In this document: positions 27,761 through 32,856 of the stretch, one piece after another
Position numbering within the stretch: the stretch's first letter is position 1
How the letters are laid out: each line of letters starts with the position of its first letter
Assembly: GCF_003334335.1 (NCBI RefSeq)
Contig: NZ_QOWQ01000012.1
Strand: one strand, 5' to 3'
DNA from: Escherichia coli
GTDB lineage: Bacteria; Pseudomonadota; Gammaproteobacteria; Enterobacterales; Enterobacteriaceae
DNA length: 64,000 nucleotides
Notes under the pieces: model-generated
Told to the model about the DNA's origin: nothing
The model's input: only the letters and a program-made list of their open reading frames with translations
Database searches by the model: none
Made by a program: the position numbers and the translations under genes

Positions 27761-29134
27761 ATGGAAAGTAAGAACAAGCTAAAGCGTGGGCTAAGTACCC
27801 GCCACATACGCTTTATGGCACTGGGTTCAGCAATTGGCACCGGGCTGTTTTACGGTTCGGCAGACGCCATCAAAATGGCCGGTCCGAGCGTGTTGTTGGC
27901 CTATATTATCGGTGGTATCGCGGCGTATATCATTATGCGTGCGCTGGGGGAAATGTCGGTACATAACCCGGCCGCCAGCTCTTTCTCGCGTTATGCGCAG
28001 GAAAACCTCGGCCCGCTGGCAGGTTACATTACCGGCTGGACCTACTGCTTTGAAATCCTTATTGTCGCCATCGCCGATGTGACCGCTTTTGGTATCTATA
28101 TGGGTGTCTGGTTCCCGACGGTGCCGCACTGGATTTGGGTACTGAGCGTGGTGCTGATCATTTGCGCCGTAAACCTGATGAGCGTGAAGGTATTCGGTGA
28201 GCTGGAATTCTGGTTCTCGTTCTTTAAAGTCGCCACCATCATCATCATGATTGTCGCCGGTTTCGGCATCATCATCTGGGGGATTGGCAACGGCGGGCAA
28301 CCGACCGGTATTCATAACCTGTGGAGCAACGGCGGCTTCTTCAGTAACGGCTGGCTTGGCATGGTAATGTCGTTGCAAATGGTGATGTTTGCTTACGGTG
28401 GGATCGAAATTATCGGGATTACCGCCGGTGAAGCGAAAGATCCTGAGAAATCGATACCGCGTGCGATTAACTCCGTGCCGATGCGTATTCTGGTGTTCTA
28501 CGTCGGTACGCTGTTCGTCATTATGTCTATCTACCCGTGGAATCAGGTTGGCACTGCCGGTAGCCCGTTCGTGCTGACGTTCCAGCATATGGGCATTACC
28601 TTTGCCGCCAGCATTCTTAACTTTGTTGTGCTGACTGCTTCGCTGTCGGCAATTAACAGTGATGTATTTGGCGTAGGCCGTATGCTCCACGGTATGGCAG
28701 AGCAGGGCAGCGCGCCGAAAATTTTCAGCAAAACGTCGCGTCGCGGTATTCCGTGGGTTACGGTGCTGGTGATGACTACCGCGCTGCTGTTTGCGGTGTA
28801 TCTGAACTACATCATGCCGGAAAACGTCTTCCTGGTGATCGCTTCGCTGGCAACCTTCGCCACGGTGTGGGTGTGGATTATGATCCTGCTGTCGCAAATT
28901 GCCTTCCGTCGCCGTTTGCCGCCAGAAGAAGTTAAGGCGCTGAAATTTAAAGTGCCGGGTGGGGTAGCAACGACCATCGGCGGGCTGATTTTCCTGCTCT
29001 TTATTATCGGGTTGATTGGTTATCACCCGGATACGCGTATCTCGCTGTATGTCGGTTTCGCGTGGATTGTTGTGCTGTTGATTGGCTGGATGTTTAAACG
29101 CCGCCACGATCGTCAGCTGGCTGAAAACCAGTAA
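27761..29134 (+). CDS. proY: proline-specific permease (APC family)
   Basis: Start at ATG 27761 ([30 protein letters not shown]...), 457 aa; the track start at 27758 is TTG. Confidence 0.93.
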
Positions 29135-29159
29135 TTCTTGCGTTCTGTAAGCCGGTTCA

Positions 29160-29215
29160 GGAGGAAATCCTGATCCGGCTATTCCGAAAGTTATCCGCCC
29201 CCGTCCTCCTCCCCC
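29160..29215 (+). promoter_or_regulatory. candidate MalT boxes upstream of malZ
   Basis: GGAGGA (29160-29165) and TCCTCC repeats (about 29205-29213) fit the MalT box GGA(G/T)GA in either orientation; placement relative to the promoter not verified. Confidence 0.3.
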
Positions 29216-29292
29216 AAATATCCTTCAGATGATGAGTGATCCTGCATTAGGCTATGGCAAGGTGATCAGATTTTCATCACAGGGGAATTATG

Positions 29293-31107
29293 ATGTTAAA
29301 TGCATGGCACCTGCCGGTGCCCCCATTTGTTAAACAAAGCAAAGATCAACTGCTCATTACACTGTGGCTGACGGGCGAAGACCCACCGCAGCGCATTATG
29401 CTGCGTACAGAACACGATAACGAAGAAATGTCAGTACCGATGCATAAGCAGCGCAGTCAGCCGCAGCCTGGCGTCACCGCATGGCGTGCGGCGATTGATC
29501 TCTCCAGCGGACAACCCCGGCGGCGTTACAGTTTCAAACTGCTGTGGCACGATCGCCAGCGTTGGTTTACACCGCAGGGCTTCAGCCGAATGCCGCCGGC
29601 ACGACTGGAGCAGTTTGCCGTCGATGTACCGGATATCGGCCCACAATGGGCTGCGGATCAGATTTTTTATCAGATCTTCCCTGATCGTTTTGCGCGTAGT
29701 CTTCCTCGTGAAGCTGAACAGGATCATGTCTATTACCATCATGCAGCCGGACAAGAGATCATCTTGCGTGACTGGGATGAACCGGTCACGGCGCAGGCGG
29801 GCGGATCAACGTTCTATGGCGGCGATCTGGACGGGATAAGCGAAAAACTGCCGTATCTGAAAAAGCTTGGCGTGACAGCGCTGTATCTCAATCCGGTGTT
29901 TAAAGCTCCCAGCGTACATAAATACGATACCGAGGATTATCGCCATGTCGATCCGCAGTTTGGCGGTGATGGGGCGTTGCTGCGTTTGCGACACAATACG
30001 CAGCAGCTGGGAATGCGGCTGGTGCTGGACGGCGTGTTTAACCACAGTGGCGATTCCCATGCCTGGTTTGACAGGCATAATCGTGGCACGGGTGGTGCTT
30101 GTCACAACCCCGAATCGCCCTGGCGCGACTGGTACTCGTTTAGTGATGATGGCACGGCGCTCGACTGGCTTGGCTATGCCAGCTTGCCGAAGCTGGATTA
30201 TCAGTCGGAAAGTCTGGTGAATGAAATTTATCGCGGGGAAGACAGTATTGTCCGCCACTGGCTGAAAGCGCCGTGGAATATGGACGGCTGGCGGCTGGAT
30301 GTGGTGCATATGCTGGGGGAGGCGGGTGGGGCGCGCAATAATATGCAGCACGTTGCCGGGATCACCGAAGCGGCGAAAGAAACCCAGCCGGAAGCGTATA
30401 TTGTCGGCGAACATTTTGGCGATGCACGGCAATGGTTACAGGCCGATGTGGAAGATGCCGCCATGAACTATCGTGGCTTCACATTCCCGTTGTGGGGATT
30501 TCTTGCCAATACCGATATCTCTTACGATCCGCAGCAAATTGATGCCCAAACCTGTATGGCCTGGATGGATAATTACCGCGCAGGGCTTTCTCATCAACAA
30601 CAATTACGTATGTTTAATCAGCTCGACAGCCACGATACTGCGCGATTTAAAACGCTGCTCGGTCGGGATATTGCGCGCCTGCCGCTGGCGGTGGTCTGGC
30701 TGTTCACCTGGCCTGGTGTACCGTGCATTTATTACGGTGATGAAGTAGGACTGGATGGCAAAAACGATCCGTTTTGCCGTAAACCGTTCCCCTGGCAGGT
30801 GGAAAAGCAGGATACGGCGTTATTCGCGCTGTACCAGCGAATGATTGCGCTGCGTAAGAAAAGTCAGGCGCTACGTCATGGCGGCTGTCAGGTGCTGTAT
30901 GCGGAAGATAACGTGGTGGTATTTGTCCGCGTGCTGAATCAGCAACGTGTACTGGTGGCAATCAACCGTGGCGAGGCCTGTGAAGTGGTGCTACCCGCGT
31001 CACCGTTTCTCAATGCCGTGCAATGGCAATGCAAAGAAGGGCATGGGCAACTGACTGACGGGATTCTGGCTTTGCCTGCCATTTCGGCTACGGTATGGAT
31101 GAACTAA
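29293..31107 (+). CDS. malZ: maltodextrin glucosidase (GH13)
   Basis: [18 protein letters not shown]... with alpha-amylase family catalytic regions; 604 aa from the second of two adjacent ATGs (29290/29293). Confidence 0.93.
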
Positions 31108-31111
31108 CGTT

Positions 31112-31693
31112 TTATAACGCCTTGCGTGACGCCTGCGCCATCATCCGCGGATAAAACTGCCAGAAGCGGGTTTCGAGGGCGTCATAATGAGCGTCTAAAT
31201 CGTACCAGGAGTCACGCAGGGCATCCAGACGTGGGCGGCGGCTTGCCATGCCGTTTAACACGTTCTGGATGAAATCCATATCGCGATAGCGCACCAGCCA
31301 CTGCTCTGACCACAAGTAATTGTTCAGATTGATAAAACGTGGCGGTGAGTCCGGCAAAATCGTCATCACTTGCTCGCGGGCATAACAGACAAATTCCTGT
31401 AGCGGAAAGTCCGGCGACAGCTGCGACCAGTGGCGGGAAAGAAAGTGATCCCACATGACATCCAGCGTAATAGGCGCAACGCGGCGCGTTTCACTACGAA
31501 ACCACTCCCGTGCTTCGCGGACTTCCGGCAGATTGTCAGTCAATACGTCGATACGTCGATGCATATGAATGCCAGCCACGACGTCGGGCGGAAAACTTTC
31601 TTCAGGATTTCCGCGTACGAAATCAGCCAGTAAATTGCCGGAAAGCGAGCTTTCCGCGAGATGGGCTAAATGCAGGTGAGCTAAAAAATTCAT
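31112..31693 (-). CDS. acpH: acyl carrier protein phosphodiesterase
   Basis: 193-aa [33 protein letters not shown]...; matches recalled AcpH (YajB). Confidence 0.92.
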
Positions 31694-31785
31694 CGATTAT
31701 ATTCTATCCAAAAGGGGGTAAAGGTTGCAGGGAGAGCGCCCCGGCACTAGACTACCCGCCTCTTATTTTAGTCTGAGTCAGTGTC

Positions 31786-32856
31786 ATGCGCGTTACCGAT
31801 TTCTCCTTTGAATTGCCCGAATCCCTGATTGCCCACTATCCCATGCCTGAACGCAGTAGCTGTCGTTTACTGTCGCTGGACGGGCCGACGGGCGCGCTGA
31901 CGCACGGTACTTTCACCGATTTACTTGATAAGCTCAACCCCGGCGATCTTCTGGTTTTTAATAATACCCGCGTGATCCCGGCGCGCCTGTTTGGGCGTAA
32001 AGCCAGCGGCGGCAAGATTGAAGTGCTGGTTGAACGGATGCTCGACGACAAACGCATTCTTGCGCATATTCGCGCCTCGAAAGCGCCAAAACCTGGCGCA
32101 GAACTGCTGCTGGGCGATGACGAAAGTATTAACGCAACAATGACCGCGCGCCACGGCGCACTGTTTGAAGTCGAATTTAATGATGAACGCTCGGTGCTGG
32201 ATATTCTCAACAGCATCGGCCATATGCCGCTGCCGCCGTATATCGACCGTCCGGACGAAGACGCTGACCGCGAACTTTATCAAACCGTTTATAGCGAAAA
32301 ACCGGGCGCGGTTGCAGCCCCGACCGCAGGTCTGCATTTTGACGAGCCTTTGCTGGAAAAATTGCGCGCCAAAGGCGTGGAGATGGCGTTTGTGACGTTG
32401 CACGTTGGTGCGGGCACCTTCCAGCCGGTGCGCGTCGACACCATTGAAGATCACATCATGCACTCGGAATACGCTGAAGTACCGCAGGATGTGGTAGACG
32501 CGGTACTGGCGGCGAAAGCGCGCGGTAACCGGGTGATTGCGGTTGGCACCACTTCAGTACGTTCGCTGGAAAGCGCGGCTCAGGCAGCGAAAAACGATCT
32601 CATTGAACCGTTCTTCGACGATACCCAAATCTTTATCTATCCGGGCTTCCAGTACAAAGTGGTCGATGCGCTGGTGACGAACTTCCACTTGCCAGAGTCG
32701 ACGCTGATTATGCTGGTTTCGGCCTTTGCCGGTTATCAACACACCATGAACGCCTATAAAGCAGCGGTAGAAGAGAAATATCGCTTTTTTAGTTACGGTG
32801 ATGCGATGTTTATCACGTACAATCCGCAGGCAATTAATGAGCGCGTCGGGGAGTAA
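31786..32856 (+). CDS. queA: S-adenosylmethionine:tRNA ribosyltransferase-isomerase
   Basis: 356-aa [32 protein letters not shown]...; matches recalled QueA. Confidence 0.97.

Follow-up and report, generated by a model that had tools for sequence, protein, structure and literature searches.

Within the stretch of Escherichia coli DNA analysed here, which is 64 kb long and is hereafter called the window, the genes malZ and acpH lie on opposite strands and converge upon a junction of four nucleotides:

29290-31107, plus strand: malZ, encoding maltodextrin glucosidase; an open reading frame of 605 codons plus a TAA stop codon at 31105-31107
31108-31111, no strand: the 4 nt spacer CGTT between the malZ and acpH stop codons, read directly from the sequence
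31112-31693, minus strand: acpH, encoding ACP phosphodiesterase; an open reading frame of 193 codons, the TAA stop of which appears as TTA on the plus strand at 31112-31114

MalZ scored 1132 bits against the NCBIfam model NF008051 (cut-off 568) and AcpH 432 bits against NF007466 (cut-off 331), and the same two names are given by RefSeq to the matching DNA of other E. coli genomes. That the two stop codons are separated by 4 nt, as proposed in the initial annotation, was borne out to the base: malZ ends at 31107 on the plus strand and acpH at 31112 on the minus strand, with CGTT at 31108-31111 between them, and the two coding sequences (CDSs) share no nucleotides, the gap being +4 nt. The chromosome is K-12-like, with 62 differences over 46775 positions aligned to MG1655, in which malZ spans 422518-424332 and acpH 424337-424918; window coordinates were obtained by subtracting 393225 from those of K-12.

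This geometry is not rare. We tabulated by hand, from the annotation of three 50-kb stretches of MG1655 (150 kb), the gaps between 25 convergent CDS pairs, negative values being overlaps. The gaps were 0, 4, 16, 23, 53, 58, 77, 176 and 244 nt in the first stretch, -86, -4, 0, 35, 39, 91, 95, 96 and 112 nt in the second, and -14, -4, 7, 47, 117, 155 and 185 nt in the third. Seven of the 25 pairs therefore overlap or are separated by 4 nt or fewer (-86, -14, -4, -4, 0, 0 and 4), and ten have a gap below 25 nt, into which a terminator hairpin would not fit; the median is 47 nt. Another such pair lies in the window itself, at 1902-1907, where the TAA of iprA on the plus strand abuts the stop codon of ampH (TCA on the plus strand, TGA on the minus), giving a gap of 0 nt that is tighter than that of malZ and acpH. 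The K-12 pairs iprA/ampH (0 nt), ydcY/ydcZ (0), pptA/yddH (-4), yrbL/mtgA (-4) and argG/yhbX (7) all resemble malZ/acpH in geometry, and malZ/acpH is distinct from them solely in having an origin that can be reconstructed, as described below.

No intrinsic terminator was found around the junction. A terminator consensus scan returned no terminator-like site near it on either strand, and a scan of approximately 650 nt downstream of each stop codon revealed no hairpin with a U-tract after it, again on either strand; nor was there, within the same distance of either stop, a bidirectional intrinsic terminator, with A- and T-tracts on the two sides of a GC-rich hairpin. Folding of the 141 nt centred on the junction was no more stable than that of dinucleotide shuffles (z = +0.72 and +1.22 for the two strands), and a search of 29000-32000 against Rfam gave no matches with an E value of 1 or less. 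Two features of the sequences into which transcription would continue are nevertheless relevant to how it might end:

31222-31271, plus strand: the strongest hairpin of the malZ read-through RNA, inside acpH and antisense to it, 115 nt past the malZ stop codon
30690-31090, minus strand: a stretch rich in C and poor in G, defined by composition, in the RNA reading through from acpH, antisense to the malZ 3' end

The hairpin has a predicted folding energy of -27.1 kcal/mol over its 50 nt, and -29.7 kcal/mol (z = -3.8) when extended to 66 nt, although this z score is only modest because the position was chosen as the best of around 1300 scanned. It lacks a U-tract, the sequence that follows being AAAUCCAUA. 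All Escherichia retain 17 or 18 of its 18 pairs, the outer stem being completed there by bases at third codon positions, and other genera retain between 7 and 16; the same sequence also encodes conserved AcpH residues. The hairpin was considered as a conserved RNA element of the whole family and rejected as such, since, over the genera compared, pairing holds in only 72% of cells, with several pairs disrupted in the majority of sequences. It could act as a protector of the malZ mRNA 3' end, or could be a chance structure.

Across 80-nt windows of the acpH extension, taken between 31090 and 30691 (about 400 nt), C exceeds G by a ratio of 1.2-1.9, a composition that resembles that of a putative Rho-loading (rut) region. 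The malZ extension has a ratio of 0.7-1.0 up to approximately 31250, its first 140 nt or so, and then of 1.2-1.6 in patches; not being C-rich at the start, it would be expected to load Rho late, and some transcripts may cross the whole of acpH. The earlier assertion that the junction leaves no room for terminators is thus accurate inasmuch as 4 nt are too few to hold one and both scans were empty, but it is overstated, because it neglects the possibility of terminators embedded within the partner CDS and of Rho-dependent ending of the untranslated antisense RNA.

Expression of malZ is under the control of MalT, and the window carries one exact match to the motif GGGGAKGAGG:

29205-29214, minus strand: MalT box GGGGAGGAGG in the malZ promoter, the sole such match in the 64-kb window

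The malZ transcription start site has been mapped to K-12 position 422484, equivalent to approximately 29259 in the window (SMRT-Cappable-seq supplement, PMC6131387), and the box sits 45-54 nt upstream of it, so that the sequence agrees with the description of malZ as a MalT-activated gene. Within 29140-29214, the proY stop codon is followed by a hairpin, aagccggttcagg...cctgatccggct. The same study lists malZ as monocistronic (PMC6131387), implying that its read-through seldom extends through queA.

Overlap of the malZ and acpH transcripts is already catalogued in the literature. MG1655 has 165 convergent excludons according to ExcludonFinder (Sanmartin et al., NAR 2025, PMC12288877), this pair included, the requirement being that the RNA-seq transcripts overlap in no fewer than 50% of 58 MG1655 samples; hence the expectation that each transcript reads into the other gene is documented by this published list. 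For 146 of the 165, overlapping terminators were predicted by TransTermHP, and the authors state that p19 data were unable to validate convergent excludons (PMC12288877). Neither malZ nor acpH is present in the supplements of Adams 2021, and the literature searched contained no functional experiment on the mutual expression of the two genes.

Strand-specific counts from wild-type cells (Huang et al. 2020, Tables S1b and S1c, PMC7373196) give 19.15 reads per million (RPM) sense and 6.38 RPM antisense for malZ, and 16.55 and 5.38 RPM for yajB, which is acpH. Averaged over the gene, the lower strand density over acpH is 5.4 RPM per 582 nt, or 0.0092 RPM/nt (Table S1c), which exceeds the antisense background of the genes nearby (0.002-0.004 RPM/nt) two- to fivefold and is near the density of malZ sense reads (19.15/1818, or 0.0105 RPM/nt). 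By the same gene-wide measure, the antisense density over the whole of malZ, 0.0035 RPM/nt, is at background level. These densities fit a situation in which malZ transcripts cross much of acpH and acpH transcripts stop early in malZ, with the qualification that Tables S1b and S1c conflict in the strand that they give for yajB and queA, making the assignment of sense and antisense over acpH uncertain. Double-stranded RNA captured by p19 in the same study amounted to 20-63 RPM for acpH and 16-72 RPM for malZ; per nucleotide, the value for acpH (0.03-0.11 RPM/nt) is not above that of neighbours such as brnQ (0.05-0.10 RPM/nt). The adjacent queA (31786-32856) yielded 254-1163 RPM of p19 dsRNA, against 16-130 RPM for malZ, acpH, proY and brnQ (Table S1b), and represents a hot spot of sense-antisense pairing at the promoter side of acpH.

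In order to place the junction in its evolutionary context, we identified 80 loci encoding AcpH relatives in species-representative genomes, and located acpH, malZ and the intervening DNA in each. Of the 80, 78 show queA and acpH in divergent order, the remaining two having acpH too near the end of the locus, and AcpH is of constant length in the 79 loci with a full-length match. All four representatives of Escherichia species other than E. coli, including E. albertii, have a gap between stop codons of exactly 4 nt, the letters of which vary (CGTT, AGCC and TACC). Within E. coli, where CGTT and CGTC were seen, the gap was checked directly in two divergent genomes, an 84-nt megablast query spanning the junction being too short to classify all genomes.

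Outside Escherichia the region is organised differently. In 63 of the 76 loci, acpH is directly followed on the same strand by a gene for a 200 aa peroxiredoxin (prx), scoring 473 bits against the NCBIfam 'peroxiredoxin C' model NF011576 (cut-off 301), the protein copies of which are 89-96% identical to that of Salmonella arizonae. Where malZ is nearby, as in S. arizonae, Leclercia, Pluralibacter and others, the genes run malZ> <prx <acpH, and malZ and acpH are 785-1615 nt apart. The spacer between prx and malZ, 50-120 nt in length, holds a canonical bidirectional terminator composed of an A-tract, a GC stem and a T-tract; in S. arizonae this is gaaaggctcgcgatagcgagcctttttt. Both prx and this terminator are absent from the Escherichia species. 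We take prx to be the Salmonella gene tsaA (STM0402), which E. coli is known to lack. The C terminus of MalZ is one residue shorter in Escherichia (VWMN*) than in Salmonella (VWMNC*). By parsimony across the 80 loci, the enterobacterial ancestor appears to have had the order malZ> <prx <acpH with its terminator.

The peroxiredoxin gene has also been lost elsewhere, in events that are independent and differ in their outcomes. In Leclercia sp. UBA7405 the gap is 38 nt and contains a perfect GC palindrome, ggcccgcccgggcgggcc (L051:2866-2903), Pseudenterobacter timonensis has a gap of 10 nt between malZ and acpH, and in Siccibacter turicensis the two genes overlap by 4 nt (-4).

The junction is also polymorphic within E. 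coli. Among 5426 complete genomes, the junction region was matched in 5425 and was unbroken in 4295; an insert is present in 1128 (20.8%), including O157:H7, with approximately 79% keeping the 4-nt junction. In the insert-bearing genomes, the split in homology falls exactly at the junction of the two stop codons:

L001:4351-5999 in E. coli CEC96047: the 1649 bp insert, which enters at window positions 31108-31117, between the malZ stop codon and the last two acpH codons
L091:12503-13948 in E. coli O157:H7 Sakai: the ORFan ECs_0454

The insert has a GC content of 31-40%, compared with 52-58% in its flanks, and its alleles differ by up to about 10% of nucleotides across E. coli. Its ends show neither a target-site duplication nor terminal inverted repeats. 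At 34 nt past the malZ stop codon it carries a terminator-like hairpin (-31.4 kcal/mol, z = -6.9), after which comes AAUUUGUU. The encoded protein is 469-493 aa long, the differences in length arising from a 12-nt tandem repeat, and has no significant match in Pfam, NCBIfam, PADLOC, PHROGs or PDB sequences, nor any homologue beyond Escherichia among 5.8 billion clustered and 1.84 billion representative proteins; the literature searched held nothing relevant on ECs_0454 or Z0502, and the AlphaFold model (mean pLDDT of 36) is unusable. Between six alleles, the pairwise dN/dS of the ORFan is 0.24-1.79, as opposed to 0.00-0.17, with a median of around 0.03, in the flanking malZ and acpH, whilst its synonymous divergence is 0.004-0.04, as opposed to 0.04-0.26 in the same flanking genes of the same strains. 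This lower synonymous divergence, together with the state of the outgroups, indicates that the insert is likely to be foreign DNA gained later at the junction, rather than an ancestral gene lost in K-12.

Since E. coli tolerates malZ and acpH either abutting or separated, the polymorphism counts against selection for tight antisense coupling, which is dispensable. The coupling of malZ to acpH, between which the initial annotation had envisaged potential transcriptional interference, is not a conserved feature, as 21% of E. coli and most other enterobacterial genera carry intervening genes and terminators.

Two further rearrangements were observed in the vicinity. In E. coli O55:H7 USDA5905, malZ is truncated at its 3' end and joined to the 3' end of the ORFan through a deletion specific to that strain (L090:1194-2934), each of the fused genes being annotated as a pseudogene. 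The spacer between acpH and queA, 92 nt in the window (31694-31785), is longer in certain E. coli strains, at 218-295 nt (L087:4848-5065, and also L002, L088 and L089); the extra DNA holds a sequence resembling the core of an ERIC/IRU repeat, cactcaccccagtcacttacttaatgtaagctcctgggga.

Taken together, we consider it likely that the 4-nt junction of malZ and acpH is the scar of an evolutionary deletion, rather than a purpose-built device, and that neither gene retained an intrinsic terminator after this event. As all Escherichia share the 4-nt gap and lack prx and the terminator, the simplest reading is a single ancestral deletion. In the ancestor of Escherichia, this would have run from stop codon to stop codon, removing prx, the prx promoter and the shared terminator, such that the original stop codons of malZ and acpH came to stand 4 nt apart. 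Polymerases leaving malZ would consequently run antisense into acpH, and those leaving acpH would run antisense into malZ. These antisense extensions may be ended within a few hundred nucleotides, most likely by Rho, because they are untranslated, and possibly also by head-on collisions between polymerases, with their 3' ends then being trimmed back to stable hairpins. The net effect of the junction on expression is probably small.

The alternative in which the overlap is itself the function, such that induction of malZ by MalT and maltose lowers acpH expression and transcription of acpH dampens that of malZ, through head-on polymerase collisions, RNase III cutting of the sense-antisense duplex, or both, appears unlikely. 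If true, it would tie the catabolism of maltodextrin to the turnover of the ACP prosthetic group. The inclusion of the pair in the published MG1655 excludome (PMC12288877), the lack of a terminator separating the genes and a plus-strand read density over acpH comparable to that of the malZ mRNA are all what such a mechanism would predict. However, p19-captured dsRNA over acpH is no more abundant than over brnQ, the literature searched holds no functional test of the pair, and convergent genes that abut are common. Comparison of genomes also argues against it: 1128 of the 5426 E. coli genomes have 1.65 kb between the genes and a hairpin of -31 kcal/mol just past malZ, prx and a terminator intervene in most other genera, and the letters of the spacer drift freely.

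It is improbable, too, that cryptic intrinsic terminators inside the partner genes, for instance the 31222-31271 hairpin stopping malZ transcription, keep the overlap short and fixed. No other local structure is as stable as this hairpin (-27 to -30 kcal/mol, z = -3.8), which is intact in all Escherichia, and overlapping terminators are the prediction for most convergent excludons (146 of 165, PMC12288877). Against this, it is followed by AAAUCCAUA in place of a U-tract, its z score is modest for the best of approximately 1300 positions, several of its pairs are broken in most sequences, with 72% of cells pairing across genera, and its sequence also codes for conserved AcpH residues; moreover, no site passes the consensus scan.

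A combination of these ideas with the deletion is conceivable, though we would give it only a slender chance. The loss of prx and the terminator would have made malZ and acpH of Escherichia an obligate sense-antisense pair, in which induction by MalT lowers AcpH and the turnover of the prosthetic group, and the 31222-31271 hairpin, which is strengthened in Escherichia, would have been co-opted to protect the 3' end of a malZ mRNA terminated by Rho; strains with ECs_0454 would then serve as natural 'uncoupled' controls. Finally, a 4-nt state derived through precise loss of an ancestral 1.65-kb segment carrying ECs_0454 could explain the break in homology exactly at both stop codons and the divergence of up to about 10% between insert alleles, but is very improbable given that E. 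albertii and three further Escherichia representatives have the 4-nt gap and no insert, that the GC content of the insert (31-40%, against 52-58% in its flanks) indicates foreign DNA, that the synonymous divergence of the ORFan (0.004-0.04) is below that of the flanks (0.04-0.26), as expected of a later arrival or spread, and that the ORFan has no homologue outside Escherichia.

Viewed as a deletion scar, the junction can be compared with three known types of arrangement. The first is the convergent excludon, a concept reviewed, along with overlapping 3' untranslated regions, in PMC7154746. The likeness lies in convergent neighbouring genes with overlapping transcripts, and malZ-acpH is itself listed as an example (PMC12288877); however, the likeness is one of structure and overlap, the mutually exclusive expression that characterises an excludon being hypothetical here, and comparison across genomes points to a scar that is tolerated, not to a device that is conserved. 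Indeed, overlap follows trivially from a 4-nt gap that lacks a terminator.

The second is the bidirectional intrinsic terminator, reportedly pervasive between convergent genes in E. coli according to work using SEnd-seq. The context is the same, and relatives that retain prx have such a terminator between prx and malZ, but the junction in the window has no hairpin, A-tract or T-tract, the ancestral structure appearing to have been deleted along with prx.

The third is Rho-dependent termination, in which the 3' ends of transcripts are trimmed to stable hairpins lacking U-tracts (Dar and Sorek 2018, PMC6061677). The untranslated antisense read-through, the C-rich acpH extension and the hairpin without a U-tract 115 nt past malZ are all reminiscent of this process, a likeness based on composition; the malZ extension differs in that it is not C-rich over its first 140 nt or so.

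The malZ/acpH arrangement is thus real, ordinary and already known; the gene order is present in every E. coli annotation, and little turns on the finding. The reconstructed origin and the ORFan polymorphism add to it modestly, the added value being that the junction can be read as the scar left by the loss, specific to this lineage, of a peroxiredoxin gene and the bidirectional terminator it shared with malZ. As such, malZ and acpH would offer a clean natural example of how a convergent gene pair without a terminator, an 'excludon', may arise through deletion and not through selection for antisense control. In addition, the polymorphism within the species, in which 79% of genomes have the 4-nt junction and 21% a 1.65-kb insert with a hairpin, provides a ready-made, isogenic-like contrast through which the consequences of such overlap could be studied.
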